From: an uncultured Acidobacteriaceae bacterium
GTDB taxonomy: Bacteria > Acidobacteriota > Terriglobia > Terriglobales > Acidobacteriaceae
Length of the DNA stretch: 64,000 nt
Assembly: GCA_963796535.1 (NCBI GenBank)
Contig: CAWCMO010000022.1
Coordinates: 147-64,146, forward strand
Direction: 5' to 3'
How positions within the stretch are numbered: the first letter of the stretch is position 1; each line of letters starts with the position of its first letter. The position numbers and the translations under genes were made by a program. The notes under the pieces are model-generated. The model saw only the letters and a program-made list of their open reading frames with translations, searched no databases and was not told the DNA's origin. Shown here piece after piece: positions 20,738 through 38,810 of the stretch.

Positions 20738-20976
20738 GAGAGGCCTTGCGGTCTTAGAAAGTTCGGTCCTGACGACAAATAATTATGAGCGCGCAAGACC
20801 GGCCATGGCTCATGGCCTGGAATCCCCGTCGCGGAAATGCTGATCTGAATAAACTTCTGTGCCCTTCTGTCCCACCTGCGAATGGTCGCGATTCTCCCAC
20901 ACGATCAGCCAGCACAATGGCTCATAGGCACTCCGCAAGAGTTGTAAACCTGGACTCGATCTAATAGCCGAAACCC

Positions 20977-22282
20977 CGAAGTTTCCGAAAACCCGACTTT
21001 CGAGGAGCTAGGCTGAAGGCTGGAAACACTTGGTATAATCCGGCTACGATGAAACGCGCTCTCATTGCAACAGCCATCGTTTTTATGTTCGTCATCAGCG
21101 TAGGCGGATTAGTGGTGTATCAGCGCGTGCGGCACTTTTTTGCTGACATACCGGCGATGCAGAAAGTTCCTGAACAATTGAAGGCCGCTAGCGTTCTCTA
21201 TGGCAGGACAGAGCTCGTAAAGGCGTCGTATCTCAAGACGAATGGGGTTGGCACCATCACTGAGATAGATGAACATGCGGACGGGACACTGACCCTGGTT
21301 GGCAAAAACGGAGCAACCGATTTCGGAGCCGATCTATCGCTCAAAGAGACAATTACCTTCGATTCCTGTAGCGACGAAGTTGTGTCCGCTCCAATCGGTA
21401 AGGGTAGATTCTTTTGCCGCTCTCACTCGCCGATGGGAGGACCATCGCTGATCGATGCCAAGGGCAATCGTCTTTGGACTTACTCCGACCGCAGTGATGG
21501 TTTTGGCATTAGCGCGGACGACGCCGCAGCAGGAGAGTTGGGCCGTGCTAATACGCCGGGAGTGGCCGTAGGCATGAATGGTGACGGCGGTGTCCGCCTG
21601 CTCACACCGGATGGGAAAGAGGTCTGGAGAAAGCCTGACGGGAATGTGTGGCATATCGAAATCATGCCGCGCAGCGATGATTCCGGGAGCGTGATCGTGC
21701 ATAGTAATGCTCCGGGCAAGCTCACGGTGCGAGATGAGTACGGCAATGTGATGGGACTATATGACGCGGAGATTTATCTAAGCGAGTTTTCACCTACTGC
21801 CTGGGGTCAGAGCGCCTTACGAGACAAGATTCTGGCAGCGACCAACCAGTCTATCTATGTGTTGTCGACGGACGGAAAAACGTTGGCCAAGCTTCCCGCA
21901 CCAGAAGTTTTGGACGACGCGGGACCAAAGGTTGCGGGGGTTCCTGTTCGTTTTACGAGTGGCGACCCTTATTATGCAGCGATCGTACGCCATCAGCAGT
22001 GGAAGCGTACGCAGCTTTATGTTTACGACGGTGCGAACAAGATGGTCTATGACGAAGTGCTCGACCAGGATTGTGCGGCGCTTGCCCCTCTTAGGAAGCA
22101 GGACGGAACGGAGCACTTGCTAATGGGGTGCGATGACTCGGTGATGGAGTATTCACTGTCGGGACAAGCAGGAAGACTTTCACGGGATTGATCCTTACTT
22201 TCGCCAAGCGCGACGCTCCTGTCCAGTTCGCAGCAGGTGATCGATGGAGAAGCTGTTCGCGAAAAACGGCGTCACCAAGTTC
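20977..22282 (+). mobile_element. Putative gene cassette 1 bounded by inverted dif-like sites S1/S2
   Basis: S1 (20977-21008) CGAA-GTTTCCGAAAA-CCCGAC-TTTCGAGGAGC; S2 (minus, 22255-22282) GAACTTGGTGA-CGCCGT-TTTTCGCGAAC, with a degenerate outer arm. Confidence 0.55.
21049..22191 (+). CDS. Hypothetical membrane-anchored protein, possibly beta-propeller-like
   Basis: 380-aa ORF; N-terminal TM; repeated DxxG.xxW motifs; TATAAT 9 nt upstream. Confidence 0.75.
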   Translation: MKRALIATAIVFMFVISVGGLVVYQRVRHFFADIPAMQKVPEQLKAASVLYGRTELVKASYLKTNGVGTITEIDEHADGTLTLVGKNGATDFGADLSLKETITFDSCSDEVVSAPIGKGRFFCRSHSPMGGPSLIDAKGNRLWTYSDRSDGFGISADDAAAGELGRANTPGVAVGMNGDGGVRLLTPDGKEVWRKPDGNVWHIEIMPRSDDSGSVIVHSNAPGKLTVRDEYGNVMGLYDAEIYLSEFSPTAWGQSALRDKILAATNQSIYVLSTDGKTLAKLPAPEVLDDAGPKVAGVPVRFTSGDPYYAAIVRHQQWKRTQLYVYDGANKMVYDEVLDQDCAALAPLRKQDGTEHLLMGCDDSVMEYSLSGQAGRLSRD

Positions 22283-22303
22283 ATTCAGGCGAAGGGATAT
22301 TGG

Positions 22304-22948
22304 CGAACTTAGACAAAACCCGACTTTTCGGGACCTGCTAGAACCAACTCTGGTTTGGCGGTGATTCAACAGCGACATTCTGGTATCCACTTCGTTAGCT
22401 TTGCGAGATAATCGAAGCTCGCTGGCGGAGTTCTGTGAGGCGTCCATGACGGATTTACTGTTCAAGTGCGGAAACGTTTTAGCCGCATACGTTTGGATCT
22501 GCTTCATTGGCCCATGGCTCGCCCGTCTCTGCGGCATCCCTGTCCCTACCGAATTCTGGAAGAAGGACTGGCAGAAGATGCATTTCAGCCGACTTCGATT
22601 CGTTTGGGCATTTGGAGTGCTGATTTTCGGCTTCGGTATGTTCCTGTTCAACTTGGACCACGATGTTATTAACAGGGTTCTTCTGGATAGACGTTGGAGT
22701 GCGAAGCTGTCTCATGTGGCATTTGCCCTAGCATTTCCCATTTTCATGACCAGCGTGATCGCGTTCTGGTGTGCGCCAACCCTATCTGATAAATCTCCCG
22801 TAACAGAGCTTGGGCTTTGCCGGCGACAATAGTCGTGGTTGACGGTCGGATCAGTCGCTAGGATTGCATCGCCTTAGTCGAGTAGTCGCCGTCCACTAGA
22901 CGCTGGGTCTACTGCCATGCGTGAAAAACGGGGTTTTGGGAAACTTCG
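22304..22948 (+). mobile_element. Putative gene cassette 2 bounded by inverted dif-like sites S3/S4
   Basis: S3 (22304-22335) CGAA-CTTAGACAAAA-CCCGAC-TTTTCGGGACC; S4 (minus, 22917-22948) CGAA-GTTTCCCAAAA-CCCCGT-TTTTCACGCAT. Confidence 0.55.
22446..22832 (+). CDS. Hypothetical three-TM membrane protein
   Basis: GAGG before the ATG; three hydrophobic, aromatic-rich segments. Confidence 0.6.
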   Translation: MTDLLFKCGNVLAAYVWICFIGPWLARLCGIPVPTEFWKKDWQKMHFSRLRFVWAFGVLIFGFGMFLFNLDHDVINRVLLDRRWSAKLSHVAFALAFPIFMTSVIAFWCAPTLSDKSPVTELGLCRRQ

Positions 22949-23073
22949 ACTTGGAGAAGGCGAGCAGACCGGATGGGTACCGGCAAACTCGCTTCTCTCT
23001 GCGTGACTCACCGTCTCATTCTCCGCCCGGGACGATACAGTGGGAAGGACGCTTCTCAACCAGCGTCCTACTC

Positions 23074-23382
23074 ATGACCGACGCCGACCTCCTCCACTTG
23101 CTACGCGACTGCTACACCCCCGCCGGCCCCAACATCGTCGCCGCCGGCCTCGTCCGTTCCGCCACCCTCACCCCCGACCTCGACGCACCGGGCGCCAACG
23201 TCCCCGGTGTCCCGCCGCGCTTCATCGCAGCCATCACCCTCCACGCCGTCGGCGCCGGCAACGCCACCGACGATCCTGCGAACGCCCAGCTCACGGCCCA
23301 GGTCGAAAATCGCCTGCTCGGCCTCCCCTCCATCTCCCGCGTCCAGATCAACCTCCTGCCCGCACTGTTTCCCATCCTCTAA
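23074..23382 (+). CDS. DUF59/Fe-S assembly-like small protein
   Basis: LLRDCY...NIVAAGLV...QVENRLLGLPSISRVQI pattern; codon style matches the host. Confidence 0.6.
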   Translation: MTDADLLHLLRDCYTPAGPNIVAAGLVRSATLTPDLDAPGANVPGVPPRFIAAITLHAVGAGNATDDPANAQLTAQVENRLLGLPSISRVQINLLPALFPIL

Positions 23383-23478
23383 AATCCGCGTTACCCGAAA
23401 CCAGGCTAAGCCCATCGCTGCGTCACCCGAAACAGGGCTAAGTCGTCACCAAACGCACCCGATTTCCCCGAATATTCC

Positions 23479-24204
23479 ATGCCGAGACCCAAGCCCGAAC
23501 CCGCCATCCATCCCTTCGACCAGCTCCACGGCACCGACACCTCCGGCCTCATCCCCGGCCACATCATCGCCGAAGGAACCGACGCACGGGTCTCCGAACT
23601 CACCGCCTACTACGGCGTCGCGCCCTCTATCCTCCATGGTTTGTTAGACATCTGGATCCAGCGCACGAGTCCCCAACCCATCGAGCGCACCGTCTTCCTC
23701 GACATCGGCGCCGGCAAAGGCCGCGCCATGCTCCTCGCCTCCCAGTTCCCCTTCCTCCGCGTCGAAGGGGTCGAGCTCAACGCCGACCTCGCGCGTATCG
23801 CCAACGCCAATATCTCCCTCTGGCACAACGACTTGCAAGCCAACGCCCTCTCCCCCCTGAGCCTTCATCACGCCGACGCGACCACCCATCCCCTTCCCCC
23901 CGAGCCCACCCTGGCCTTCCTCTTCCATCCCTTCGAACTCCCCATCCTGCGCCGCTTCCTCCGCCACGTAGAGCAGTCTATCTCCAACAATCCAAGGCCC
24001 TTCGATCTCCTCTACGTCAACGCCGAACACGACTCCTACCTCGACCACCACCCCGCCTTCACCCGCCTCTGGACCGGCCTCGTCCCCATGTCCCCCGCCG
24101 ACCACGCTGCCGACATGGCCGCCATCGCCCAGCAAAAAGAATACGGATCCACCGGCGACGAACTCTGCGCCATCTACCGCTATAAGGGCCGCAAATCGCT
24201 ATAA
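23479..24204 (+). CDS. Class I SAM-dependent methyltransferase
   Basis: FLDIGAGKGR, VEGVEL, DA and FLFHPF motifs. Confidence 0.88.
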   Translation: MPRPKPEPAIHPFDQLHGTDTSGLIPGHIIAEGTDARVSELTAYYGVAPSILHGLLDIWIQRTSPQPIERTVFLDIGAGKGRAMLLASQFPFLRVEGVELNADLARIANANISLWHNDLQANALSPLSLHHADATTHPLPPEPTLAFLFHPFELPILRRFLRHVEQSISNNPRPFDLLYVNAEHDSYLDHHPAFTRLWTGLVPMSPADHAADMAAIAQQKEYGSTGDELCAIYRYKGRKSL

Positions 24205-24248
24205 ATTGCAGCGGTAAATCAAATAAATTCGATTCACTGCCCTTTCAC

Positions 24249-24409
24249 GGAACCAACCCGCCGCAACCCCCGTATTACAAACCAGACCTGATTCGCCCCG
24301 TTTTTCCCAATAAACTAGGGGTTGCGTGCGAATAGCGGCCAAGAAGAGCGATAACCAGAGGACAAAAAGTTTGAGTCTAATGGAACCATTCGCACCTCTT
24401 ATACGTAAC
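24249..24409 (+). promoter_or_regulatory. Two tandem ECF-type promoter motifs
   Basis: GGAACC-N16-CGTATT (24249-24276) and GGAACC-N16-CGTAAC (24382-24409). Confidence 0.55.
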
Positions 24410-24639
24410 AGGTTGTGTGCACAACACCCGGGAACGCTCCTCAAACTGAGCGACCGACCCGTGAATGATCGATCCTGGTGAGCTCCTGGGACCGCACAAG
24501 CCTTAAACTTTCCCGCGACCGCGACGGCTGAGTCAAGATCTCATCACCGGCGGCACGGACCACATCACTGATACCAAACGCTTTAGTAGAGCGCCGCAAT
24601 CCCGGCCTGCCCGGTCGCGCGCGCCAAAGGAGAAACACT

Positions 24640-24744
24640 ATGTACCTCGCACTCGTAGCACTCGCTTCCGCTTCCACCATCTTCGTTCCCAGCTTCATCG
24701 CCATCCGCGACCGTACGAACGCTGACTGGCACGGCCGCTCCTAA
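24640..24744 (+). CDS. 34-aa small hydrophobic protein (absent from the ORF track)
   Basis: AAAGGAGA RBS; MYLALVALASASTIFVPSFIAIRDRTNADWHGRS*; followed by a terminator. Confidence 0.7.
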   Translation: MYLALVALASASTIFVPSFIAIRDRTNADWHGRS

Positions 24745-24767
24745 TTGAGCTAGCCCAAACCCAACGA

Positions 24768-24800
24768 GCAAAAGGCCGCGATCAATTCGCGGCCTTTTGC
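24768..24800. terminator. Bidirectional intrinsic terminator
   Basis: GCAAAAGGCCGCGA-TCAAT-TCGCGGCCTTTTGC. Confidence 0.88.
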
Positions 24801-24815
24801 TTTCCTCTCAGGGCC

Positions 24816-25259
24816 TTACCACCGCAGCATCAGCAGTCGCTCATTTTCAGCCTCGCCCTGCCCAATCGCAATCTCTGCGTCCGCCCGCTCCATGACGCTT
24901 GCAAACCGGTCGCCCCACTCCACCATTATCAGCGCATCCGGAGCCTCGGCCATCTCCCACAACCCGATCCCTTCGATCTCCCGTTCCTCCTCCAACCGAT
25001 ACAGATCCAGGTGAATCAGACGCGTCTTGCGCCCTTTGTACTCGTGCACCAGCGTAAAGGTCGGACTCGTCACCTCCGTGGGATCAGCGCCCAGCGCAGC
25101 GGCCATCCCGCGCACCAGGGTCGTCTTTCCCATCCCCAGATCGCCGCGTAAGACCACCAGCTTGGGCGCGGGCAGCAACTCCGTCAGCAACTCGCCGAGT
25201 GCCAGCGTTCCATTCTCACTGCGCGTGCGCAACCGCTTCTCCCGCGTCCACTCCTTCAT
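24816..25259 (-). CDS. tsaE: tRNA t6A biosynthesis ATPase
   Basis: GDLGMGKTT, VTSPTFTLVHEY, HLDLYRL and VEW motifs; ATGA overlap with nnr. Confidence 0.95.
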   Translation of the reverse strand: MKEWTREKRLRTRSENGTLALGELLTELLPAPKLVVLRGDLGMGKTTLVRGMAAALGADPTEVTSPTFTLVHEYKGRKTRLIHLDLYRLEEEREIEGIGLWEMAEAPDALIMVEWGDRFASVMERADAEIAIGQGEAENERLLMLRW

Positions 25260-26914
25260 CCCACCACCCCATTCCCCGCCGTCCCCGCAATCCAAGTCAA
25301 CCCATCCGCGTCCTGTACCCGGGCGCGAAACGCCTGCCACAGATGTCCCACGGTATCTGTTGCCAGCACCGTATGTTCATCCTGCGCCCGGCATGCGGAG
25401 TCTCCAGCCAGGCCATGCAGAAACACCGCAGCCTCCACCGCAGCCGCGACGTTATCAGGGTATTGCGCGAGCATGGCGCACACGATCCCTGTCAGAATAT
25501 CTCCACTACCGCCTTTGGCCATCGACGGATTCCCCGTCGTATTCACCGCAATCCGTCCATCCGGATGCGCCACCAGCGACCGCCAACCCTTTAGCACCAG
25601 CGTCACGCCATGCTCGGTCGCAAATCGCCGCGCCAGCCCCACGCGATCCGCTTCAACCTCCTTCACACTCATATCCACCAGTCGCGCCATCTCTCCGGGA
25701 TGCGGTGTCAGCACAATCGTCCGCCCCTTCTTCGTAACGTCCTTCAGCAGCGACGTCCTCCCTGCGAGCGCATTCAGCGCATCTGCATCGATGACCATCG
25801 GAAGCGTAACCCGTCCCACAAACGTCCGCACCCACTGCGGCGTTGTTCCCTCCTGCCCCAGCCCCGGCCCAACCCCCACCACCGTCATGCCCTTCAGCAG
25901 GGCCTTCAGCTCTTCGGTCTCCAACTGGTCGAGCGCCAATCCACCCACCTCAAACCCCGAGCCGTGGACCCTGGCATCGGAACTCTGCTCCTCCAGTGGC
26001 GTCAGCATCAACTCGGGCGCAACCGCTGCCACCAGCGGCAGAATCTCTCGCGGCACTGCGGCCGTCACCAAGCCGGCACCCGTGCGCAGCGCAGCCAGGC
26101 TAGCCATGGAGGGCGCGCCCGCCTTGCCATACGATCCGCCCACAAGCAGCACGTGTCCCAGCCGGCCCTTGTTTCCGTTGATCGCCCGTGGCGCCTCCGC
26201 AATCGACTTCGCGCTCCCGCCCCACGTCAGCCGGGTCGCCGACTCAATCGCCGAAGCCGGCGTCCCAATTCCCGCGACCACTACTGGCCCAAACGTCTCC
26301 TCCGTCAAGTGTCCAAATACATGCGCAAGTTTAGGAGCTGTAAACGTCACCACGGCATCCGCGCGAAAGGCCCCCTCGGCCTTCTCTTCCATCGAATCCG
26401 CATCCCACCCACTCGGCAGATCCACAGCCACCACCGGCACTCCGCTCTCCGCCAACAATCCCTGCGCCACCGCCGCAAGCCCGCGCAACGGCGGCTTGAA
26501 CCCCGTCCCCACCACTGCATCGATCACCAGCGCGGCACTCTGCAGAGCCGCCCGCAACCCCGCCTCATCCTCAATCTCGAGCACTTCAACGCCGCTTGGT
26601 TCGCCGCCCGCTCTGTCCAGCTTCGCCCGATAAAACGCGCGCTCTGCTTCACCCTTTAGATCACTCGCCTTTCCCAGCAGCGCCACCCGCACTGGCCGCC
26701 CAGCCTCCGCCAGTCGCCGCGCCGCGACCATCCCATCACCGCCATTATTTCCCTTGCCGGCGAGCACCACCACCAGCCCGTCGCTGTCGAATCGTCTCAG
26801 GCAAAACCGCGCCACGGCGTCGCCCGCATGCTGCATCAGTGTCTCCACCGACACGCCCGCCTCAACCGACCGCCGGTCCGCCCCACCCATCTCTTCCGCT
26901 GTAAGAATCTTCAT
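25256..26914 (-). CDS. nnr: Bifunctional NAD(P)H-hydrate epimerase/dehydratase (YjeF)
   Basis: GKGNNGGDG, VDLPSG, GPGLG, IDADAL, TPHPGE and GGSGDILTG motifs. Confidence 0.95.
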   Translation of the reverse strand: MKILTAEEMGGADRRSVEAGVSVETLMQHAGDAVARFCLRRFDSDGLVVVLAGKGNNGGDGMVAARRLAEAGRPVRVALLGKASDLKGEAERAFYRAKLDRAGGEPSGVEVLEIEDEAGLRAALQSAALVIDAVVGTGFKPPLRGLAAVAQGLLAESGVPVVAVDLPSGWDADSMEEKAEGAFRADAVVTFTAPKLAHVFGHLTEETFGPVVVAGIGTPASAIESATRLTWGGSAKSIAEAPRAINGNKGRLGHVLLVGGSYGKAGAPSMASLAALRTGAGLVTAAVPREILPLVAAVAPELMLTPLEEQSSDARVHGSGFEVGGLALDQLETEELKALLKGMTVVGVGPGLGQEGTTPQWVRTFVGRVTLPMVIDADALNALAGRTSLLKDVTKKGRTIVLTPHPGEMARLVDMSVKEVEADRVGLARRFATEHGVTLVLKGWRSLVAHPDGRIAVNTTGNPSMAKGGSGDILTGIVCAMLAQYPDNVAAAVEAAVFLHGLAGDSACRAQDEHTVLATDTVGHLWQAFRARVQDADGLTWIAGTAGNGVVG

Positions 26915-26969
26915 CGTGCGTCACTGCCTCATCCATTAGGATGCAACAGGTCCGGCAGTATGCGCACCC

Positions 26970-28244
26970 CTACTGCTGCGCCGCGCCGCCGGTCCCTACC
27001 AGGGCAGCCGTCTCCGGCTTGGACTGCAGGAAGTAGTTCCGGTCAAACATCGCGCGATAGAACTGGCCCGTCAACTCGGCTGCCTTCGGCCCGAAGGTAT
27101 CTCTGCCGCCTTCGAGGAAGATCACCGTCACGATACGTCCCGTCGGCGCATCGCCATAGCTCACAAACCATCCAAACCGCGTCCCGTTATCGGAGCAGGT
27201 ACCAGTCTTCCCGAACACCGGGAAGGACTCAAAGTTCGTCCGCAGCGAACGCGCCGTCCCATCGCGGAAGTCGACCGCGCCCTCCATGCCAGGCAGAATC
27301 TGCGGAATCACATCCTTGATATCCAGCAGCCGCTTCACCTGGGGCTGAAAGTTCGTAACCTCAGCCTGCGTCGTCGGATGCTGCAGGTAATACAGTGTGC
27401 CGCCATTCGCAATCGCGCTCACCAGCGCGCCCAGTTGAAGCGGCGTCATGCTGATGCTCTCGCCAAACGAGCACATCCGTCCCACCCCACCACTCGCCGC
27501 CGGCAGCACCGTATCGGGATACACGCCGAGGTGCTCGCCGGGAATGTTATACCCCGCCAGCTCACCCAGGCCAAACTCATTCGCATAGTGCTTTACTCGT
27601 TCAAACCCCATCGAGCGCCCCAGCACTTCGAAGTACAGATTGATCGACCGTGCCAGCGCATGCGTCAAATCCACCGAATAATGTCCGCCCAGGTTCACCG
27701 GCGTATCGGCCTTCACCAAACCTTCCTTTAGCGCCGACAACGCCACTGCCACCTTGATCGTCGAGCAGGGCTCCGCACCCGCGCTCAGCGCGAGCTTCTG
27801 GTTCACCATCGCCAGGATGCGCCCGTCGGAAGGATCAATGGCCAGCACCGTTCCGTTCATATTGCCAAGGGCCTCAATCGCCGCGGCGCGCACCACTGGA
27901 TCTTCCCCCGCCGTCACATCATTCATCGTCAGCAGATTCTGATCGGTAAAGCTGCTCGCCGTAAACCGCTCCCCGTAATACCGAACCCGTGCCCGCTTGC
28001 CCCTCACATACACCATCGTGGCGTGTCCGTGCGCCGACACACGACCCGCAACATGCGCAACCTCCGCATGCCCATACGCCGCCCCAGCCCGCGCCCGCGC
28101 AGCGCTGTGCGCCACCAGCCGATGCGACGTGCTCGCCGCCACCATCTTGTGCCTATGTCGAGCCGGCGTTATCGTCGCATGCGCGCTCAGCACGCCCGCA
28201 AGCATGACCAACCCCATCACCAGCCCTGAAATCCTTCGTCCCAT
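26970..28244 (-). CDS. Secreted penicillin-binding transpeptidase-domain protein
   Basis: SxxK (STIK), SxN (SIN) and KTG (KTGT); signal peptide plus a His/Ala/Arg-rich N-region. Confidence 0.85.
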   Translation of the reverse strand: MGRRISGLVMGLVMLAGVLSAHATITPARHRHKMVAASTSHRLVAHSAARARAGAAYGHAEVAHVAGRVSAHGHATMVYVRGKRARVRYYGERFTASSFTDQNLLTMNDVTAGEDPVVRAAAIEALGNMNGTVLAIDPSDGRILAMVNQKLALSAGAEPCSTIKVAVALSALKEGLVKADTPVNLGGHYSVDLTHALARSINLYFEVLGRSMGFERVKHYANEFGLGELAGYNIPGEHLGVYPDTVLPAASGGVGRMCSFGESISMTPLQLGALVSAIANGGTLYYLQHPTTQAEVTNFQPQVKRLLDIKDVIPQILPGMEGAVDFRDGTARSLRTNFESFPVFGKTGTCSDNGTRFGWFVSYGDAPTGRIVTVIFLEGGRDTFGPKAAELTGQFYRAMFDRNYFLQSKPETAALVGTGGAAQQ

Positions 28245-28409
28245 CTTCTCTCTTCTCTACCGAAATTCGACCATCTACTAACGTTCATGCCTTGCGGCCG
28301 TTCCGTTCGTGATCAAAAACACGCTGAACGAAACTACCGCAATCTTCTAATACATCTCATCGGCCACGCTGCCCGAAACTCCAGCGTCATCATCCTCAAG
28401 GCCAATCGT

Positions 28410-30224
28410 CTACTGCTTGCGCCGCAAAAACGCTGGAATATCCAGCTCATCGTTCTCCGCGGCCGGTTCCCCTGCATATCCTGCGAACGACGGAACCCTG
28501 GCATCCGGCCACGCGTTGTTTGCGGTATTCTCGGCCGCCTTTGCCTCGGCGACATCTTCCTTCGGCTTCCGGAAAAACTCATCGTCGAACACCGACGCCT
28601 TCGCCGGCGCAGTCTCCGCAGGAGATCCCGTCTCCGCTGGTGCCTGCTCGGTCACCTGCGGAATGTGCTCCACAACCATGGCAACCGGAGCAGTCGCCGA
28701 CTCGGAAATCACCGCAGCCTTCGCCTTCTCGACCGCCTCTGCCGGAGCCGCCACGGAAGGTTCAACAGACTCCACCGGATGCTGCGGGTACTCGACCCGC
28801 GGCAGCTCATGCCATGCCTGCCGCCGCGCCGTCTCGTAGTACGACGACACAGGATACGTCGGCCGTTGCGCTGGTGCCTCAACGGCCGCTTCGGCAGCTG
28901 CCGGCGCCGCCGCTACGGGTACTGCAACTGGCGGTGTCGCGACGGTGGACGCCTTCGGCTCGGCAACCGCCGCGCTACCCAGCGCCTCCTCTACCTCAGT
29001 CTCGCTCGCAAATCGAACGGCCGGTTTCTGCGCCTGTGATCCGAAAACCAAGGGCTGCGTCTCCTCGGCTGCCTTCGGCTTTTCAACCGGCGTAGACACC
29101 GGTACCAGTGGCCGCGAGACAACTCTCGGCGGCACAATCTCGTGATGCGCTGTCGGCAGCGCCGAAGCCGCCATCATGCGCTCCCGCCGCGCCGGCATCT
29201 CCTCGCGGAAACCCGTTGCGATCACCGTAAACTTCACGCTGTCGCCCAGATCCTCATCCAGCACGGCGCCAAAGATAATGTTCGCGTCCTCGTGCGCTGC
29301 CTCCTGGATAATCGACGACGCCTCGATGACCTCGCTCAGCTTCAGGCTGCTCGATCCCGTGATGTTGATCAGGATCCCGCGCGCTCCATCGATCGCTCCT
29401 GCCTCCAGCAGCGGCGAAGCAATCGCAGCCTTTGCCGCTTCCGTCGACCGGTCTGGCCCCGACCGAACCGCCGTTCCCATCACCGAATAGCCCATCCCGG
29501 CCATCGTCGTCTTCACGTCCGCGAAGTCGCGATTGATCACGCCGGGAATCGTGATGATGTCCGAAATTCCCTGCACACCCTGGCGCAAAATATCATCGGC
29601 GATCCGGAAGCTCTCAAAGAAGCCCGCATCCTTCGCGGTCGTGAGCAGCTTGTCGTTCGGAATCACGATCAGCGTGTCGACCGACTCCAGCAGCTCCTGC
29701 AGACCGCGTTCCGCCTGCATTGCCCTTCGTTTGCCTTCGAACCCAAACGGCCGCGTCACGACAGCAATTGTCAGCGCGCCCATCTCGCTCGCCAGCGACG
29801 CGATCACCGGCGCCGCGCCTGTGCCCGTTCCGCCGCCCAGGCCGGCCGTCACAAATACCAGGTCCGCGCCCTCGAGCGCTTCAATAATCTTGTCCGAATC
29901 TTCCAGCGCCGCCCGCCGCCCCACGTCCGGATTCGCTCCCGCGCCCAAACCGCTGGTCAGCTTCACGCCCAGCTGAAGCTTTACCGGCGCATGCGACCCT
30001 TCCAGCGCCTGCACGTCCGTGTTGGCGGAAATAAACTCAACGCCCTGAACATTCGCCTCGATCATGCGGTTGATGGCGTTGTTGCCGCCACCGCCCACAC
30101 CAATCACCTTGATCCGCGCGTTCCGCCGCGTCTCGTCGTGAAATTGAATCCGCAGCGAATCCGGCTGCTTGTCGTCGAGCGAGTCCTGCGGAACGCCGGG
30201 TGTGTCTTCAGGCGGCATGGGCAT
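28410..30224 (-). CDS. ftsZ: Cell division protein FtsZ with a long linker
   Basis: [18 protein letters not shown] and DFADV motifs; C-terminal LDIPAFLR. Confidence 0.98.
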
Positions 30225-30377
30225 CAGCGTATCTCCTTCGGCGTTGGCGATTCACTTCTCTTCATTCTGCACGGCGAACGCCTCAAGTGCATTCACGAAA
30301 TCCGTCGTGGACCTAAGTCGGTTACCGGTGCATTCCGTTCCTGCACCGGTCTCCTCATCCAAACCTGTCGCACAAAC

Positions 30378-31043
30378 CTACCTGGAAGACGGCAAATGAA
30401 ACACAACCGAAGCACCAATCGACAGCAAACCCACCGAACTCGGCCCATCCACGACCGCACCGCTGTTGCCAACCCGGTTCATGTTCCCGATCCCCAGCTC
30501 TACCGGCCGTAGGTCAATGATCGAGAAGATCGGGATGGACAACCCGGCAAACCCTTCATACATGATGTAGCTGTCTTCCACGCGCGGCTGCAGCGGCGGC
30601 TCCTGGCTCGTCCCGAACGGCAGCGTCGCATTGCTGCGCCCATACCCAGCCGATACCTGCACATACGGTTTCAGCCACGAAATCGGCGTGTGAAATGTCC
30701 CCCGCACCCCCAGCAGCGCGTTGTCCAATACCGTCGTGTCGCTACCACCGGCCGAGCTCGTCGCCGACTTGTTCGAGTGCATCACGCCACCCCGGAAATC
30801 CACTCCCAGCCGCATCGGCCCAACGTTGCGAAAGTCGTAATACGCACCCGCCTGCCAGCCTGCCGGGTTCACCTTGCCGCCTGTGCTCGAGCACTGCAGT
30901 GGGGCCGGCTCAAAGCATGTAATGCCACGCAACTGCGTCGCCTGATACCCGATATACACACCTGCCTGGGCATGTGCCGCTGCGGCACCCCCAAATCCGA
31001 AAAGTACGATCAAAACTGCATACAGCCCTTTGCAAAATCTCAT
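30378..31043 (-). CDS. Outer-membrane beta-barrel protein
   Basis: Signal peptide AHA-Q; KPYVQVSAGYG; alternating strands ending ASVVFHL. Confidence 0.75.
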   Translation of the reverse strand: MRFCKGLYAVLIVLFGFGGAAAAHAQAGVYIGYQATQLRGITCFEPAPLQCSSTGGKVNPAGWQAGAYYDFRNVGPMRLGVDFRGGVMHSNKSATSSAGGSDTTVLDNALLGVRGTFHTPISWLKPYVQVSAGYGRSNATLPFGTSQEPPLQPRVEDSYIMYEGFAGLSIPIFSIIDLRPVELGIGNMNRVGNSGAVVDGPSSVGLLSIGASVVFHLPSSR

Positions 31044-31154
31044 ATACACCCAGTCTATCGTCATCCAGCGCCTTCTGGCCGCACCTCCCCAGCCTTAACC
31101 GCCGTTTTCCTCGCCCTTAGCCCCGAAGTCTCCGGCGTCCGCTCTTGCCGTTGC

Positions 31155-31190
31155 CTTTCTTTCTGTCATTCCCTCCGGGAATCTGCTTCT
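31155..31190 (+). repeat. GTCATTCCC palindromic repeat, copy 1 of 9
   Basis: CTTTCTTTCTGTCATTCCC-TCC-GGGAATCTGCTTCT. Confidence 0.9.
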
Positions 31191-31207
31191 GCCTTTGCCC
31201 ACCCAAA

Positions 31208-31235
31208 CACTAACCACTAGCCACTAACCACTGCC
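31208..31235 (-). repeat. Heptad array after the ftsA stop
   Basis: + strand CACTAAC CACTAGC CACTAAC CACTGCC. Confidence 0.75.
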
Positions 31236-31236
31236 T

Positions 31237-32464
31237 TTAAAAACTCCCCGCGAAGATCGACTTCAGCTTCTGCGCCAGTCCCTGTTCTTCGCTCGCCTTG
31301 CGTACCTGCGTGCGATGCGTATACAGCAACATGCCAATCGCGACGGAAAACTCTGGCTTCGCCAGCTCTGGCGGCATCCGGCTCAACGGCACCGGATATC
31401 CGATCCGCGCCGGCACCCGCAGCAAACTCTCCGCGTTATCCAGGAAGCCCACCAGGTGAGCGCCGCCGCCGGTAAATACGCAGCCCGCGCCCATCGCCTC
31501 CAGCACCCCGCCGGTGCGAAGATTGTCGCGCAGCATGGTCAGCAACTCGCGCGCCCGCGGCTCCAGGATCTCCGCCAGAAACCGCTGCCGCACCAACCGC
31601 ACCGATTGCCCTCCAACTGCCAGGTCGCTGCCAATCTCAATCTCGTTCATCTGCGGAATCGACGTCACCACGCAGTTGCCATACATCCGCTTCAACTGCT
31701 CGGCCTCTTCCACGCTCACATGCAGACCCACCGCAAGATCATTGGTAAAGTGATCCCCGCCGATCGGCAGGACCGCGGTATGCGCCACGCTGCCTTCGAA
31801 GAACACCACCAGCTCGGTCGAGCTCGCGCCAATATCCACCACGCAAACGCCCAGCTCGCGCTCGTCGGCCGACAGCACCGCCTCCGCCGCAGCAATCCCT
31901 TCAAACACCGTGTCCACTACCTCGAGCCCCGCCCGATTCGCGCACGTCACCGCGCTCTGCGACGCCGAACCTGAGCACGTTGAGAGATGCAGACAAACTT
32001 CCAGCCGGTTCCCCACCATCCCCACCGGATCATGGATTCCGTTCTGGTCGTCGAGAATAAATTGTTGCGGCAACAGGTGCAGAATCTCTCTATCCGGCGC
32101 CAGACCCACGCTCCGTGCCCGGTCGATCGCACGACCGCACATCCTCGCGCGTAATCTCTTTCATCCGGCTGCCCATGCTGATGCCGCCCTGCGAGTTCAT
32201 CCCGCGCACATGCGGCCCGCCAACCCCAACCACCGCCGTCTCAATCGGAGCCTTCGCCGAACGCTCCGCCGTCAACGCCGCCGCATTGATCGCCTTCGCC
32301 GCCGGCCCCAGATCCGAGATCACCCCGCGCCGCATTCCGCGCGACGCCTCGATTCCATGCCCCCGATATCGCAGCACGCCATCAATCAACTCCGCCACCA
32401 GCACGCAGCTCTTCGAGCTTCCCGCGTCCAGCACCGTGATCAGGTTGTCCATCTTTGCATTCAT
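31237..32464 (-). CDS. ftsA: Cell division protein FtsA, with an apparent +1 frameshift at ~32133
   Basis: LDAGSSKS...EITREDVR joins AIDRARSV...VVDIGASST...GGDHFTNDL...FTGGGA. Confidence 0.95.
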
Positions 32465-34095
32465 GGATTAGCTCCAGTCTTCGTGCTCACGCTGCCAGCG
32501 CCGGCTTTACTTGCTCCCGGCTTCGCATTTTTCGCAACGCTCCCCGTTCCCGCCTTATGTTGCTTCGCCAACTCAGCCTGATGCTCTGCCGCCAGCCGCT
32601 CAAACACCTTCTCATTGGCCGCGCTCATGCCAGATCCCGGCTTCGCCTTCCCAGCCACCGGCTTCGCCACAGGCTTCTTCGCCACAGGCGGACTCGCCTT
32701 CGCCGTCACCAGTTTTGACGTACCAACGGTCTTCGGGGCAGCAGGCTTCGTAGCCGGGGCGTTCATCACCACAGGCTTCGGCGCCGCAGCCTTCGGCATA
32801 TCCGCATGCGAGAAGTCAGGATTCACCACAGGCGGCTTCGTCGCACCAACATTCACCACAGCAGGCTTCACCACCGGTGGCTTCGACGCACCAACATTCA
32901 CCGCGCCAGGCTTCGCCGCAGGTAGCTTCGACGCACCGACATTCACTGCAGCAGGCTTCACCGCAACAGGCTTCGGCGCTGCAGGCTTCACACTCGCAAC
33001 CGGCTTTGGCACCATCGGCGCTGGACTCGCCACGCTGGTTGTCTGCGCCGCGCCTGTCCCGCCGGCCGCTGCCTTACCATCCCCCTGCATCTCCAGCACA
33101 ATCTGCCCTTCATACCGCATGTCCGCGGACGCCAGCTTCGGATACTGCTGCTTCCACTCCTGCAGATGCGCCTCGAACTGCTGGTACCGCTGCAGAAACT
33201 GTTCCTGCCCAAAGTGCACCAGCACGTCTGAACTTCCCGACGTAATCAGCGCCTTCACATCCTCCGGATCCGCAACATCCACCTCGCTCACCGACTCCGT
33301 CAAGCGCTGCCCCGATGCATCCAGGTCATGCATAAACTGCTCGAAGATCTCCATCTTCGCCGCGCGCTCCGACCCCGCTTCATCCGCCGACAATCCCGTG
33401 AGCACCGGAAACGAATAGTGCGGATCCCCGGCCGCATCCGCCGGCATATCCAGCAGCACGCCACTAGCATCCACCAGCCCGATCTGCGACCCCTGCCGCA
33501 CAAACGCCACCGGCGTCCGCTCCGCAATCTCTACACGCAGCACATTCGGCAACAGCCGCATCACCGTCGCATGGCCCACCCAGGGCAACCGCTCCAGGTC
33601 GGCCTGCCGCTCCCCCAGCGATACTCGAAAGATATTCCGCTCCAGGTCGGCGCCAAACACGCTCACAATCTGGTCGCGCGTCAGGTGGTCCGCGCCGGTG
33701 ATCTGGATGTCATCCGAACTCGCCAGCACAAACCGCGCATCGTGCATCAGGTAAGAGCGCACGCCGGCAACCGCGACCGCAACGGCCGCCAGCAACGAGA
33801 ACGCCACGACACCCAGAACGATCCGCCCGGCCACGCTGCGCGGCAGGCTGCGAAATCGCAGCAGCTTCCCGCGCTGCGGAACATACTCGGACTCGTCCGG
33901 ATAGGAGCTCTCAGCCCCCGCTTCCCCGTAGCGATTGATACCATACCCGCGCTGCAGCGCGCCCGCCGGCGCCGGCCCTTTGCGCCCTCCCCGAACCTCA
34001 GCCTCGGAAGCGTAGCTCTCCTCAGGCGCCGTCAGCACCGCCGAGCCCAGTCCGGAGTCATACCCGGACACGCGCTTCGCACCTGTCTTCTTCAT
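32461..34095 (-). CDS. ftsQ: Cell division protein FtsQ/DivIB with a long Pro/Lys/Ala-rich tail
   Basis: TM, POTRA-like (LPWVGHATVMRLLP, ERTPVA) and DMRY; located between murC and ftsA. Confidence 0.9.
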   Translation of the reverse strand: MKKTGAKRVSGYDSGLGSAVLTAPEESYASEAEVRGGRKGPAPAGALQRGYGINRYGEAGAESSYPDESEYVPQRGKLLRFRSLPRSVAGRIVLGVVAFSLLAAVAVAVAGVRSYLMHDARFVLASSDDIQITGADHLTRDQIVSVFGADLERNIFRVSLGERQADLERLPWVGHATVMRLLPNVLRVEIAERTPVAFVRQGSQIGLVDASGVLLDMPADAAGDPHYSFPVLTGLSADEAGSERAAKMEIFEQFMHDLDASGQRLTESVSEVDVADPEDVKALITSGSSDVLVHFGQEQFLQRYQQFEAHLQEWKQQYPKLASADMRYEGQIVLEMQGDGKAAAGGTGAAQTTSVASPAPMVPKPVASVKPAAPKPVAVKPAAVNVGASKLPAAKPGAVNVGASKPPVVKPAVVNVGATKPPVVNPDFSHADMPKAAAPKPVVMNAPATKPAAPKTVGTSKLVTAKASPPVAKKPVAKPVAGKAKPGSGMSAANEKVFERLAAEHQAELAKQHKAGTGSVAKNAKPGASKAGAGSVSTKTGANP

Positions 34096-34232
34096 CTCCG
34101 CCTGGCCCTGAGCAAGGCCGCGGAAGAATCGCCGTTACCACAACTATAACGGCCCCCACTCCCCCCGCCGAAATACCTCTCCCCGGGGTACCCCATCAGG
34201 AACATTTGCCACCCTAATTCCAAACGCCGTCC

Positions 34233-35732
34233 TTAATTCCCGCCGTCCGCGGAGGATCGCAAAGCATCCAGCAGCATCGGCCCCGCCTGCGACACGCTCC
34301 CCGCCCCCAGCGTCAAAATCATCTCGCCCGGCCGCGCATCCTCCGCCAACCGCTCCACCGCCTCCGCCATCGACGCCGCGTACATCACGCGCCCCCCGCC
34401 CCTCTCGCGAATCGCCGCCGCCAGCGTCTCGCCCGTGATCCCCTCAATCGGCGACTCACTCGCCGCGTAAATGTCCAGCACCTGCACGGCGTCGGCATCC
34501 CCAAACGCCCCCGCAAAGTCCTCCATCAAATCCCTCGTCCTTGTATAACGATGTGGCTGGAACAGCACCAGCACCCGTCCATACCCACACTCCCGAGCCG
34601 CCTGCAGCGTCGCCCGAATCTCCGTCGGATGATGCCCATAGTCATCAATCACGGTCACCCCACGCTCCACGCCGCGCACCTGAAATCTTCTATCCACCCC
34701 CCGAAACGTAGCCAGCCCCGCAGCAATCGCCTCAGGAGTAAGTCCCAACTGCACCCCAATCGCCACCGCCGCCGTAGCATTCAGCACATTATGCCGCCCC
34801 GGCACATGCAGCTCAAACGGCCCCAGCACCAACCCCCGCGCATTCACCTCAAACCGCGCATGCGCCTCCCCACCACCCGCTACACCAACCCCCGCATCCC
34901 CACGGAACTGGGTGCCCCGGGTCCGGATTTTCGGACCCGGGTTTACAGATTCGCCCGGCAACATCCTCAACCGAAAGTCCGCCTCCGCGCTCGCGCCATA
35001 CGTATAAACCCGCCGCCTCACCCGCGGCAGAATCCCCCGCAGCCGCGCGTCATCCACGCAAGCCGTCACCGCTCCATAAAACGGCACCTTATCCATGAAC
35101 TCCACAAAGCAGTTCTCCACATCGGCCATGTCCTTATACGAATCCATGTGTTCGCGATCAAGATTCGTCACCACCGCAAGAATCGGTGACAGCATCAGAA
35201 AGCTCCGATCACTCTCATCAGCTTCTGCAACGAGATATTGCGAACGACCCAGCCGCGCATTCGATCCCATAGCATCCACGCGACCGCCTACCACCACCGT
35301 CGGATCCAGCTCCCCGCCCGCCAGCACGGCCGCCACCATGCTCGTCGTCGTGGTCTTCCCATGCATCCCGGCAATCGCAATCCCATACTTCAGCCGCATC
35401 AACTCCGCCAGCATCTCCGCCCGCTGAATCACCGGAATCTTCCGCGCCCGCGCCTCCACCACCTCAGGATTATCCCTAGCCACCGCCGAGCTAGTCACCA
35501 CCACATCACTAGCCGCAGCATTGCCCGCCGCATGCCCCAAATAAATCACAGCCCCCAACCGTTCCAATCGCTCCGTAGTAGCCGACGCCCGCAGGTCCGA
35601 CCCCGAAACCGCATACCCCATCGTCAGCAGGATCTCCGCGATCCCACTCATCCCAATCCCGCCAATCCCAATAAAGTGCACCCTCTGCGAAGGCGCAAAC
35701 ATAGCATGTTCCGGCAATCCCGAAGTCTTCAT
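34233..35732 (-). CDS. murC: UDP-N-acetylmuramate--L-alanine ligase
   Basis: HFIGIGGIGMSG, GMHGKTTTT, EADESD, DDYGHHPTE and FQPHRYTR motifs. Start uncertain (35732 or 35750). Confidence 0.97.
   Translation of the reverse strand: MKTSGLPEHAMFAPSQRVHFIGIGGIGMSGIAEILLTMGYAVSGSDLRASATTERLERLGAVIYLGHAAGNAAASDVVVTSSAVARDNPEVVEARARKIPVIQRAEMLAELMRLKYGIAIAGMHGKTTTTSMVAAVLAGGELDPTVVVGGRVDAMGSNARLGRSQYLVAEADESDRSFLMLSPILAVVTNLDREHMDSYKDMADVENCFVEFMDKVPFYGAVTACVDDARLRGILPRVRRRVYTYGASAEADFRLRMLPGESVNPGPKIRTRGTQFRGDAGVGVAGGGEAHARFEVNARGLVLGPFELHVPGRHNVLNATAAVAIGVQLGLTPEAIAAGLATFRGVDRRFQVRGVERGVTVIDDYGHHPTEIRATLQAARECGYGRVLVLFQPHRYTRTRDLMEDFAGAFGDADAVQVLDIYAASESPIEGITGETLAAAIRERGGGRVMYAASMAEAVERLAEDARPGEMILTLGAGSVSQAGPMLLDALRSSADGGN
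34910..34942 (+). repeat. Palindrome inside the murC coding sequence
   Basis: GGGTGC-CCCGGGTCCG-GATTTT-CGGACCCGGG, a perfect 10-bp stem. Confidence 0.7.
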
Positions 35733-35780
35733 CGCTATGTATTGTCCCACCCTCGGACCTTGTGCATGCTATACAAACTC

Positions 35781-36842
35781 ATGCGCCCAGCCCACCTCCT
35801 CCTAGCCGCCGTCCTCGCCGCGCCCCTATATGCCCAGACCACCCACACCCTCCTGGCCACGCCCTCCACCGTTGCCTGGGGCTATTACTCTGCGCACGCC
35901 AAGCCCGTCCTCACCGTTCACTCCGGCGACACCGTCATCATGCAGACCGCCTCCACCTGCGGCCCACCCGAGCGCCTCCAGTCCGAAGGCGTCGCCCCCG
36001 ACAGAATCCCCGCCTGGCTAGCTCCCCTCTACGCCGGCGTCCCTGCATCCGACCGCGGCCCCGGCGGCCACATCTTGACTGGCCCGGTAGCAGTGGCCGA
36101 TGCAGCACCCGGCGACATCCTCGAAGTCCGCGTCCTCAAAATCGACATCACCACTGACTTCGCCTGCAACGGCTTCGGCGCCGGCCGCGGCTTCCTCCCC
36201 GACGACTATCCCTACGGCCGCACCAAAATCATCCCCCTCAACCGCGAGAAGATGACGGCGGACTTCGCCTCCGGCATCACCATTCCTCTCCGTCCCTTCT
36301 TCGGCTCCATGGGCATCGCACCACCCGAGTCCGCCGGCAAGTGGAACTCCGCGCCCCCCTGGATGCACGGCGGCAACATGGACAACAAGGAGCTCACCGC
36401 TGGCTCCGTCATCTTCTACCCTGTCCACGCCGAAGGCGCCCTCTTCGAAGCTGGTGACGGCCACGCCGGCCAGGGCAACGGCGAAGTCGACATCACCGCC
36501 CTCGAAACCTTCCTCACCGGCACCTTCCAATTCGTCCTCCACAAGGGCGAAGCCACGCGCCAGCGCCTCCTCTGGCCCCGCGCAGAAACCCCTACCGCCT
36601 ACATCGCGATGGGTTTTTCGCCTGACTTAAAGACCGCCACCGAGATGGCCGTCCGCAACATGATTACCTTCCTCTCCGACCAAAACCCCGACTACCCCCA
36701 CCTCTCCCGCGACGACGCCTACGCCCTCATCTCCACCGCCTGCGACGTAGACATCACCCAACTCGTCGACACCAACGACGGCGTCCACGTCCTCTGCCCC
36801 AAGTCCCTCTTCACCGGCCCCAAATCCCCACCTAAACCATAA
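35781..36842 (+). CDS. Secreted acetamidase/formamidase family protein
   Basis: GHILTGPV, PFFGSMG, HGGNMD and GDGHAGQGNGEV..TALE motifs. Confidence 0.92.
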   Translation: MRPAHLLLAAVLAAPLYAQTTHTLLATPSTVAWGYYSAHAKPVLTVHSGDTVIMQTASTCGPPERLQSEGVAPDRIPAWLAPLYAGVPASDRGPGGHILTGPVAVADAAPGDILEVRVLKIDITTDFACNGFGAGRGFLPDDYPYGRTKIIPLNREKMTADFASGITIPLRPFFGSMGIAPPESAGKWNSAPPWMHGGNMDNKELTAGSVIFYPVHAEGALFEAGDGHAGQGNGEVDITALETFLTGTFQFVLHKGEATRQRLLWPRAETPTAYIAMGFSPDLKTATEMAVRNMITFLSDQNPDYPHLSRDDAYALISTACDVDITQLVDTNDGVHVLCPKSLFTGPKSPPKP

Positions 36843-36855
36843 ACAGTCGTAGCAG

Positions 36856-38791
36856 CGAACTTGCCGATAACGTGATTTTGCAGGAACCTCCCCTGAAGAC
36901 TCTGCCTTCGTCGATGAGTGACTCGGCGATAATGCGCCAATTGAGAGAGTCGACGAAATTTCGGTAGTGAGGAACCACCGAACCTTCGTGATCGTATGTG
37001 CTTTTATGCCAGCACCATTCCATCGGATCTGTGTCATATCGTTCATGCTTGCCACAACGGCCTCTCTTGCACCAGGTCAGGCGGCGATGCCACCTGCCGG
37101 TTCCGCGACGACAGCCGACTTTCCTGTGTGGGGAGATTTGCGGCCCGGGACCTACAGCGCCGGATTTAAGAGCATCTTCCGGTACGACAACTCACGCACC
37201 TGGAAATCCACCCGAAGCTACACCGGCGCATTTTCCCCTGATTTAGATGGGCGGCCCATCCAGATCAGCATCTGGTATCCAGCGAACGCAGGCTCATCGG
37301 ACAAGAGGATGACCTTCGCCGACTACGTGGATCAGAGTGCTCCGCAGAACTTCACCCAACTCAATGGCATCATGAAGCAACGCAGCCGCGGCGACGCCGC
37401 AGGCTCTGTCCCACACAGCGAGCTTTCTGCACTGCAGTCGCTCACGATGAACGCATATCGAAATGCCCAGCCAGCCGCAGGGCGTTTCCCTGTGGTGCTT
37501 TACTTCGCTGGATTGAGTGCTCCGATCAACTCCAATGCCATCATGTCCGAGTATCTCGCAAGCCACGGCTACATCGTCGCCAGCATCTCCTTGATTGGCC
37601 CATCCGATGAAGAGACCTTTCAATCGCGCACCTCGAACGACTTTGAAGCCACAGTCCGTGACATGGAGTTTGCCTGGTCCGTACTTCAGGATCAGCCGAA
37701 CGCAGATAGCGCGCGCCTGGCCGTGATGGGACACAGCGTAGGCGCCATCGAAGCCGTCATCCTGGGCATGCGCAATGCAAACGTCTCGGCCGTGATCGCT
37801 CTCGATGGGACCTACGGCTTTGAAGGGCTCTCTTCAACACTGACCAACTCCTACGCGTATGACCCTGGAAAGATGCGAGCTGCTTTTCTCGATCTGCGGC
37901 GTGCCAGAGGTGCGCAGGGCAATGAACCACTGAACCTCAGTGCAGTCGAGTCATTTCGTCATGCCAACCGTACCTTCATCACCATCGACAAGATGCATCA
38001 CAGCGACTTCACTTCGTTTGCCATGATTGGAGCGTATTTTCATTCGCCACTCCCAACCGGTTATCCACTCAACGGCTGGAATCGCGAGACAGGTCGCGCT
38101 GGCTACCAGGCCGTATGCAGAATCGTGCTCTCCACACTCGACGCAGACTTGAAGTCAGATTCCACGGCAATGGCCATGACGGAACGCGAGATGCAGCAGA
38201 GGAGCGGAATCACTATTCGACATGAAAGCGCTGTTCCACCTCCGCCGTCGCCGCTGGAGGCCGCGGCGCTCGCTGCCAGCAAAGGCCTCGATGCCGCAGA
38301 GTCTGCCTTCACCGTCAGTTGCGGACAAGACGCACTCGCGTCGTGCATGAATGTAGATCGCTTCAACACATGGGGCTACAACCTTCTCGGACAGCAACGA
38401 TCAAAGGATGCTCTGGCGGTATTTCAATTGAATGCCTGGGCCCACCCGCAAAGCGCGAACGCGCAAGACAGCTTGTCCGACGCCTTCGGCGCAGTCGGAG
38501 ATAAGAAAAGTGCGAAGGGCGCGATTGAGCGAGCGATCGCTCTTGCGCCCGCCGATCCCTCTTTTGATTCCACTGCAAGATCGGCCTTCCTGTCCGAGGA
38601 GAACGCTAAGCTCCAGCAATTCAAATAGGTTGTCAATCGAACCGTCTATCGAACTCCCGCGCTTGCCACTGACATGCGGATGTCTAATGAACAAGCCGGT
38701 CTTCCTGTCGACTGTCGCCAACAGGCCGAGCCACTCATCGAGGGTTCTCGGATTCGAGATTCCCCGCAAAACGGCGCTATCGGAAACTTCG
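36856..38791 (+). mobile_element. Putative gene cassette 3 bounded by inverted dif-like sites S5/S6
   Basis: S5 (36856-36887) CGAA-CTTGCCGATAA-CGTGAT-TTTGCAGGAAC; S6 (minus, 38760-38791) CGAA-GTTTCCGATAG-CGCCGT-TTTGCGGGGAA; 23/32 identical by hand count. Confidence 0.6.
37006..38628 (+). CDS. Secreted alpha/beta hydrolase with a C-terminal TPR-like region
   Basis: GRFPVVLY, LASHGYIV, nucleophile GHSVG, HSDF and NAQDSLSDA. Start uncertain. Confidence 0.8.
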   Translation: MPAPFHRICVISFMLATTASLAPGQAAMPPAGSATTADFPVWGDLRPGTYSAGFKSIFRYDNSRTWKSTRSYTGAFSPDLDGRPIQISIWYPANAGSSDKRMTFADYVDQSAPQNFTQLNGIMKQRSRGDAAGSVPHSELSALQSLTMNAYRNAQPAAGRFPVVLYFAGLSAPINSNAIMSEYLASHGYIVASISLIGPSDEETFQSRTSNDFEATVRDMEFAWSVLQDQPNADSARLAVMGHSVGAIEAVILGMRNANVSAVIALDGTYGFEGLSSTLTNSYAYDPGKMRAAFLDLRRARGAQGNEPLNLSAVESFRHANRTFITIDKMHHSDFTSFAMIGAYFHSPLPTGYPLNGWNRETGRAGYQAVCRIVLSTLDADLKSDSTAMAMTEREMQQRSGITIRHESAVPPPPSPLEAAALAASKGLDAAESAFTVSCGQDALASCMNVDRFNTWGYNLLGQQRSKDALAVFQLNAWAHPQSANAQDSLSDAFGAVGDKKSAKGAIERAIALAPADPSFDSTARSAFLSEENAKLQQFK

Positions 38792-38810
38792 CCCGCTTGC
38801 CCTCAAACCT

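Follow-up and report, generated by a model that had tools for sequence, protein, structure and literature searches.

The 64-kb stretch of DNA analysed here (the window), from an uncultured Acidobacteriaceae bacterium (contig CAWCMO010000022.1 of assembly GCA_963796535.1, our G000), is chromosomal and carries six related sites, S1-S6, that bracket three accessory genes and belong to a family of tyrosine-recombinase-type sites with 46 members in this genome. A preliminary description of the window had proposed these sites as the borders of mobile gene cassettes, and all six were found at the coordinates and on the strands it gave. S1 (20977..21008, + strand, 46 bits on the family matrix) consists of a 15-bp outer arm, the spacer CCCGAC and an 11-bp inner arm; it belongs to the L class of the site family that we term F1, and would form the left end of a chromosomal docking platform. 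It precedes cargo 1 (21049..22191, +), a 380-residue open reading frame (ORF) with a hydrophobic N-terminus and no Pfam family in the Pfam scan, whose counterpart in the related genome G065 is 76% identical and has no surrounding sites. S2 (22255..22283, -; spacer CGCCGT) is of the other class, R, and is degenerate as already described: sequence and matrix place a 3-nt deletion in its outer arm, it yields no ungapped score, and it is likely weak or dead as a site. A 20-bp linker (22284..22303), a minimal outer-arm module, joins the back-to-back outer arms of S2 and the L-class S3 (22304..22335, +; CCCGAC; 33 bits), which is followed by cargo 2 (22446..22832, +), a hydrophobic ORF of 128 residues with no Pfam family and with Atlas look-alikes all below 0.9, and by the R-class S4 (22917..22948, -; CCCCGT; 39 bits).

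S1-S4 adjoin a gene for an extracytoplasmic function (ECF) sigma factor, while the remaining pair lies in the division and cell wall (dcw) gene cluster, in the murC/murG interval. Here the L-class S5 (36856..36887, +; 43 bits), whose spacer CGTGAT ends in a base that is off the L consensus, and the R-class S6 (38760..38791, -; CGCCGT; 32 bits) enclose cargo 3 (37006..38628, +), a 540-residue alpha/beta hydrolase with a signal-like N-terminus. The inverted pairs had been described as each holding one gene, which is correct for the three ORFs, but a second inverted pair, nested inside S5/S6 and belonging to a different family, F2, had been overlooked: its members lie at 36911..36944 (+; spacer GGCGAT; 44 bits) and, in the other class, at 38708..38741 (-; spacer GGCCTG; 38 bits). 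The five intact F1 sites score 32-46 bits and no other match reaches 8 bits in the window; no recombinase gene was found among the 31 window ORFs scanned, as had been reported. The departure of the enclosed genes from the C-skewed style of the host was also borne out, with a GC content of 0.50-0.57 and a skew of -0.09 to +0.14 in the three ORFs against 0.62-0.67 and -0.16 to -0.40 in five flanking genes.

A matrix built from the five intact sites found 43 matches of at least 20 bits in the 3.16-Mb genome, five of them the seeds themselves; three local shuffles gave 0-1, and iteration of the matrix raised the number to 46 against 0-1 at 18 bits. The information is limited to 32 bp: CGAA precedes an 11-bp arm, and a second, weaker arm of the same length follows the 6-bp spacer as an inverted repeat of the first. 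The 11-6-11 anatomy first proposed therefore holds for the core but not for the outer arm, which is conserved over 15 bp with CGAA included, giving a 15-6-11 architecture (outer arm STTKCCGAWAA, inner arm TTTNNRGGAR in the F1 consensus). Sorting of spacers by side, noticed within the window, extends beyond it to two classes, L (NNN-GAC) and R (NNN-CGT), S5 being off the L consensus: the last three spacer bases of unique sites are GAC in 330 and CGT in 228, with the next commonest triplet at 10, and the first three bases are variable. Across the genome, GC content is higher outside than inside at 37 of 46 sites, and absolute skew at 36 of 46. The L-type pattern is present in five of 41 related genomes, although as a scan pattern it is narrow, G016 and G021 carrying a variant with a different inner arm. 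An exact scan of GTDB genomes returned 96 stretches, and the 80 of these listed by title are all Acidobacteriaceae or Acidobacteriota.

The sites follow a strict grammar. Converging neighbours are an L and an R site in 146 of 149 pairs, with cargo between them, and short back-to-back neighbours are L and R in all 125 cases, so that arrays read L-cargo-R, linker, L-cargo-R; direct neighbours are L-L (63), R-R (12) or, in six instances, mixed. Linkers of up to 30 bp measure 1-4, 12-15 or 22-25 bp in 112 of 124 cases, length classes picked post hoc after a first look at the data and spaced by about one helical turn, which suggests that neighbouring cores must share a helical face. Cargo direction is unbiased (of 142 cases, 70 have the longest ORF on the + and 71 on the - strand), and its content is diverse: a Pfam family was assigned to 52 and none to 94 of 146 longest ORFs, a set drawn from 160 from which ten were dropped and four more short ones left out. 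Long ORFs that recur inside the L..R units are regulators. We also looked for an autonomous element with its transposase or recombinase between L and R, and none was found in these units. Sites additionally bracket two blocks of 15-16 kb (C6:26216-41142 and C6:42573-58378 in G000), of which one is an L-L inverted pair that could be invertible.

An IS110-family insertion sequence (IS) interrupts F1 sites between spacer and inner arm (L109:3647-5070, L094, L053, L038, L089, L152, L159 and L407). All eight distinct left ends lie directly after the spacer (seven R, one L), and the inner arm resumes past the right end in the two copies checked; this element is a site-hunting IS, of the kind that targets attC and pdif sites.

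To locate the point of exchange, 617 site contexts were compared pairwise. In 48 pairs related only through the outer flank, identity is about 0.9 up to position 15, the end of the outer arm, and at background from position 16, the first spacer base, onwards; in 15 pairs related only through the inner flank, inner arm and spacer are kept and the outer arm is near background. Tyrosine recombinases cross over inside the spacer, and it is here that both sets place the crossover. The order of strand exchange cannot be inferred from the association of spacer halves with flanks because the outer pairs are older than the inner ones. The chromosomal cassette system first proposed is upheld by dif-like cores, two spacer classes and crossover within the spacer. 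At cargo 3, whose copies lie between other sites on the recombinase-bearing contigs L174 and L175 (93.7% identical), neighbours switch exactly at both F2 spacers: homology to L174 and L175 begins at the spacer of the left site, and that to L175 stops at the spacer of the right one. The joints 22326-36917 and 22948-20980 were considered as an in-window rearrangement and rejected, the former being the L174/L175 context and the latter obtainable from any array junction.

The synteny breaks anticipated at the sites are likewise present. We examined four loci of this genome in five congeners. At every one of the four, G001 and/or G056 carry orthologous sites whose enclosed DNA is unrelated. The orthologous sites lie at both ends at C5:77183-78198 and at C20:79032-80482, where the match is positional and the flanks have diverged, and at one end at the other two loci. 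G075 and G085 have no sites at the C3 and C5 loci; at C3:60987-61755 they lack 860 bp, and seeding is unreadable there because the loss is 28 and 62 bp larger than the unit. At the C4 locus G085 gave two ambiguous matches. Over 20663-21007, two peat contigs (X1 record 3 and X3 record 23) differ from the window at 6 and 9 positions, and beyond it they join this host flank of S1 to other DNA; a third (X3 record 24) has S1 together with cargo 1. The homology breaks in the spacer, the orthologous sites with different cargo and the peat contigs therefore indicate that cargo has been exchanged at the sites.

Clustering of ORFs near the sites identified a 318-residue tyrosine recombinase with intact catalytic R-K-H-R-H-Y motifs. 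Its gene lies not within L..R units but between outer arms: an L site follows the stop codon at a distance of 3 bp, another site stands 40-130 bp upstream of the gene, and both turn their outer arms towards it. As an independent test we retrieved 81 loci by the recombinase protein alone; their 460 kb contain 157 sites, where three shuffles gave none. Of the genes, 31 of 69 have a site upstream and 19 of 74 one downstream. In a tree of 132 genes, one clade of 58 members includes 40 with an adjacent F1 site, against two of the 74 genes outside it (both counted by hand); the clade has a FastTree support of 0.89, or 99 in a 55-row version, both being quick trees from which matches below 250 residues were left out. 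The protein scores 46 bits on TIGR02249, where the cut-off for integron integrases is 265, and 112 and 101 bits on the XerC and XerD equivalog models, with cut-offs of 335 and 330, and is 29-32% identical to host Xer over about 150 residues; by these sequence scores it is not XerC, XerD or IntI. The wider family is large, with at least 8000 members (8000 of the 8000 candidates scored), and viral contigs held one distant recombinase.

At C6:41119-41584 this genome retains a truncated remnant of the recombinase module, which is 83-88% identical and terminates in an L site. An intact copy, 84% identical, lies as gene ACIX9_RS23090 on the conjugative plasmid pACIX905 of Granulicella tundricola MP5ACTX9, typed as rep_cluster_93 and MOBF, with 17 sites in 31 kb and none in shuffles, making this plasmid a plausible donor. 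Three other integrases of this genome have no sites near them. Small serine recombinases also recur near or within arrays (L030:3283-3990, L082, L102, L103 and L425), twice on pACIX905 beside an HNH gene.

The F2 sites nested inside S5/S6 obey the same logic with other arms. They are 14-6-14 in structure, with two classes of their own whose spacers end in GAT or CTG, and number 11 in the genome against 0-1 in shuffles; 47 of 114 F2 matches lie within 120 bp inside an F1 site. Read by eye, F2-type sites flank sister-clade recombinases and further clades combine F1-like spacers with different arms under the same two-class rule. Our best argument that an element's own enzyme reads the arms is that the arms change with the recombinase clade. 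If sister clades act on F2 arms as the first would on F1, cargo 3 could be moved by two orthogonal systems. A third site family, with spacers GCCGAC and CGGCGT and inner arm TTATGAGGA, was noted in G016 (C12-C14) and G021 (C5) and, at L420 and L424, also beside clade-E recombinases.

We think it probable that this tyrosine recombinase, a mobile enzyme dedicated to the sites, works in trans and exchanges cargo between loci and strains at crossover points of two spacer classes, in what would be recombinase-mediated cassette exchange (RMCE) occurring naturally. Tyrosine recombinases all form similar tetramers, and this one would bind both arms as a homotetramer. Because the exchanges seen in the breakpoint pairs and at cargo 3 are class-pure, L would recombine only with L and R only with R, the three spacer bases beside the inner arm having to match and mismatches beside the outer arm being tolerated. 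A docking platform would consist of two outer arms within host DNA, where a single L-L or R-R crossover with a donor, either a plasmid or an excised circle of cargo, R, linker and L, would lengthen the array; a second crossover at the other class would then replace one cargo by another, direct L-L or R-R repeats would allow a cargo-linker unit to be excised, and the mismatch between L and R would prevent cargo inversion. As judged from comparative genomics this is a real gene-exchange system that varies the dif-module theme: it has a recombinase family of its own, and its orthogonal sites are nested. We lean, more cautiously, towards the broader proposal that mobile tyrosine recombinases found throughout the Terriglobia run a third bacterial gene-cassette system beside integrons and dif modules, characterised by clade-specific heterospecific site pairs, dozens of inherited chromosomal platforms, natural cassette exchange and nesting by several orthogonal systems.

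Several observations weigh against cassette exchange by this enzyme. No site over threshold was found for 18 of the 58 clade members, an intact recombinase is absent from this assembly (71% complete), and at E 1e-30 no recombinase match came from G012 or G024, which bear sites and are 97% and 86% complete. The breakpoint pairs are not independent, many of them coming from few recombinase modules, the peat runs provide contigs only and may reflect one campaign, and neither circles nor inversions were seen. Relatives also hold variable DNA at both window loci without sites (0 matches of at least 8 bits in 58 loci), so both loci are general hot spots, and clean empty alleles were not found among these relatives, which hold other inserts. 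The link of F2 to clades A-C comes from few loci (5 of 74 over threshold) and from reading by eye. Finally, the last eight bases of the F1 outer arm are common to the XerC arm of the host dif site (AYGTCCGATAA), which brings host enzymes into consideration.

Mobilisation in trans, also supported here, had been attributed to host Xer or another tyrosine recombinase; the dedicated clade and fixed gene-site offsets favour the second option, and host Xer no longer leads. Comparison with chromosomal dif, also proposed at that stage, went against a common identity: acidobacterial dif sites, as predicted in the available text of PMC3025954, and a conserved site of the genus have TCCGATAA in common with the F1 outer arm. 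Their spacers and XerD arms are different, with F1 matrix scores of -17 to -19 and -6 to -10 bits. Neither dif nor xerC/xerD was found in this 71% complete assembly, and a first dif candidate was rejected as coding DNA. Since spacer and XerD arm differ, host XerCD alone is unlikely, and the mover is probably not host XerCD. That the sites are nonetheless genuine dif modules operated by host XerC and XerD, with the recombinase gene a mere passenger module, would accord with the 11-6-11 core and alternating modules known from Acinetobacter and with arrays persisting where the recombinase was not found; we regard it as very unlikely, given a host XerD arm (TTCTGTATA) unlike the F1 inner arm, arms that vary with recombinase clade, and the lack of sites in 36 of 41 relatives, including G003, in which, as in G001 and G075, xerC and xerD are adjacent. 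A hybrid synapse, with the outer arm bound by host XerC and the inner arm by the element's recombinase in place of XerD, would account for the eight shared bases and for spacer variability beside the outer arm, which mirrors the tolerance of pdif sites beside XerC (available text of PMC13141974), and the possession of xerC/xerD by the three genomes just named is compatible with it. However, the inner arm read backwards reproduces the outer half-site, as would suit one protein, the invariant TT and the CGAA extension are missing from dif, published dif XerC arms reach only -7 to 5.6 of 19.9 bits on the outer-arm matrix, and F2 arms bear no XerC likeness, making a hybrid synapse unlikely. The dif of the genus (L347, L351 and L354) has a non-canonical XerD arm, with TTCTGT for TTATGT.

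Two further explanations were weighed. Terminal inverted repeats (TIRs) of non-autonomous DDE or HUH transposons inserting next to their own ends would suit the sharp outer edge abutting host DNA and the short phased linkers, and could describe how platforms are seeded. The preliminary description had named DDE TIRs among the outcomes that would overturn its proposal; the breakpoints lie in the spacer and not at the edge, the absence of target duplications it had noted extends to all 146 L..R units (none of 4 bp or more), and no transposase recurs inside these units except the site-interrupting IS110. As an account of exchange this reading is largely refuted, and overall we consider it highly improbable. 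Palindromic sequences beside accessory genes might instead be binding sites for a regulator of foreign genes, without recombination, and the recombinase could merely autoregulate there, yet the sites stand at both gene ends regardless of gene direction, fall into two strictly paired classes and mark exchange points to the base, which leaves this idea with hardly any credibility.

Exchange by a dedicated recombinase invites comparison with known systems. Acinetobacter dif modules are bounded by inverted pdif sites, with alternating module kinds (PMC13141974, PMC12907356 and PMC10132070, as far as their available text goes), and compared with that text the present system has in common the 11-6-11 core, crossover in the spacer, modules of two alternating kinds that are each enclosed by inverted sites, a like-spacer rule with one-sided tolerance, single-module swaps via two crossovers, arrays on plasmids and chromosomes, and a site-hunting IS. 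It works like these modules but is not one of them: the sites here are not host dif and have no XerD-type arm, a dedicated recombinase gene forms a module of its own, only two spacer classes with a fixed L-to-R polarity occur, one module kind is reduced to a phased linker of 1-25 bp, and dozens of platforms are spread across the chromosome, with at least two orthogonal, nesting site families. Acinetobacter modules also reside on Rep_3/OrfX plasmids, whereas the window sites lie among chromosomal dcw genes and the plasmid found is rep_cluster_93 and MOBF.

Integrons, and the clusters of attC sites lacking integron integrases (CALINs), combine a tyrosine recombinase with cassette arrays, most cassettes having one gene and their functions being diverse or unknown; these arrays outlast the integrase, and IS110-family elements target their sites. 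All of this is paralleled here, but by sequence (no attC model was run) the 32-bp sites have neither the attC hairpin nor the GTTRRRY core, the recombinase falls far below the IntI cut-off, a common cassette promoter is lacking because cargo points either way, and two site classes permit replacement besides insertion. Engineered RMCE uses heterospecific lox or FRT spacers, a replaceable cassette being flanked by like arms and unlike spacers; the layout is the same here, but the system would occur naturally and in many copies, with mobile recombinase modules spreading it. XerS/difSL and XerH/difH act at one terminus site in dimer resolution. They resemble our system in linking one Xer-like enzyme genetically to its site (available text of PMC2731167), but the hosts here also have ordinary xerC/xerD and dif.

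If correct, the proposal provides a mechanism for accessory-gene turnover in very abundant but hardly tractable soil bacteria, whose many 'phage integrases' have been interpreted as old phage relics (PMC3174227, PMC3469429); the available text of these two mobile-element papers reports many integrases and does not mention such sites. We found no published description of such a system in literature searches that covered sources other than subscription journals and bioRxiv supplements. The logic of dif modules, so far described as dependent on host Xer and centred on Acinetobacter, would here operate with its own enzyme and in orthogonal versions, and the sites delimit genes selected for mobility, most of them with no Pfam family. 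The recombinase clades and their ready-made heterospecific site pairs may also be a source of orthogonal genome-engineering tools, and the system is directly testable because a cultured type strain holds enzyme and array on a conjugative plasmid.

Some minor features of the window complete the picture. Host homology extends to a few bases from the outer edges of S4 and S5, restarting about 6 bp from that of S4, and G070 has a decayed S4 look-alike at the same position. Near the S4-orthologous position in G056 (L267), a terminator-like hairpin contains an R spacer and inner-arm bases in the exact register of S4 but no outer arm, and may represent chance, decay or a captured target. The interval of roughly 180 bp that separates S1 from the ECF sigma gene (20798-20976) is unmatched in the relatives and loci compared and occurs in peat contigs with other cargo; this stretch may be part of the platform. 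A host repeat that is scattered over the genome in some 20 copies, about 110-260 bp long and 69-86% identical, starts just outside S6 (38805-38930), and the assembly as a whole shows very strong local C/G skew, of up to 0.45, that switches within contigs.

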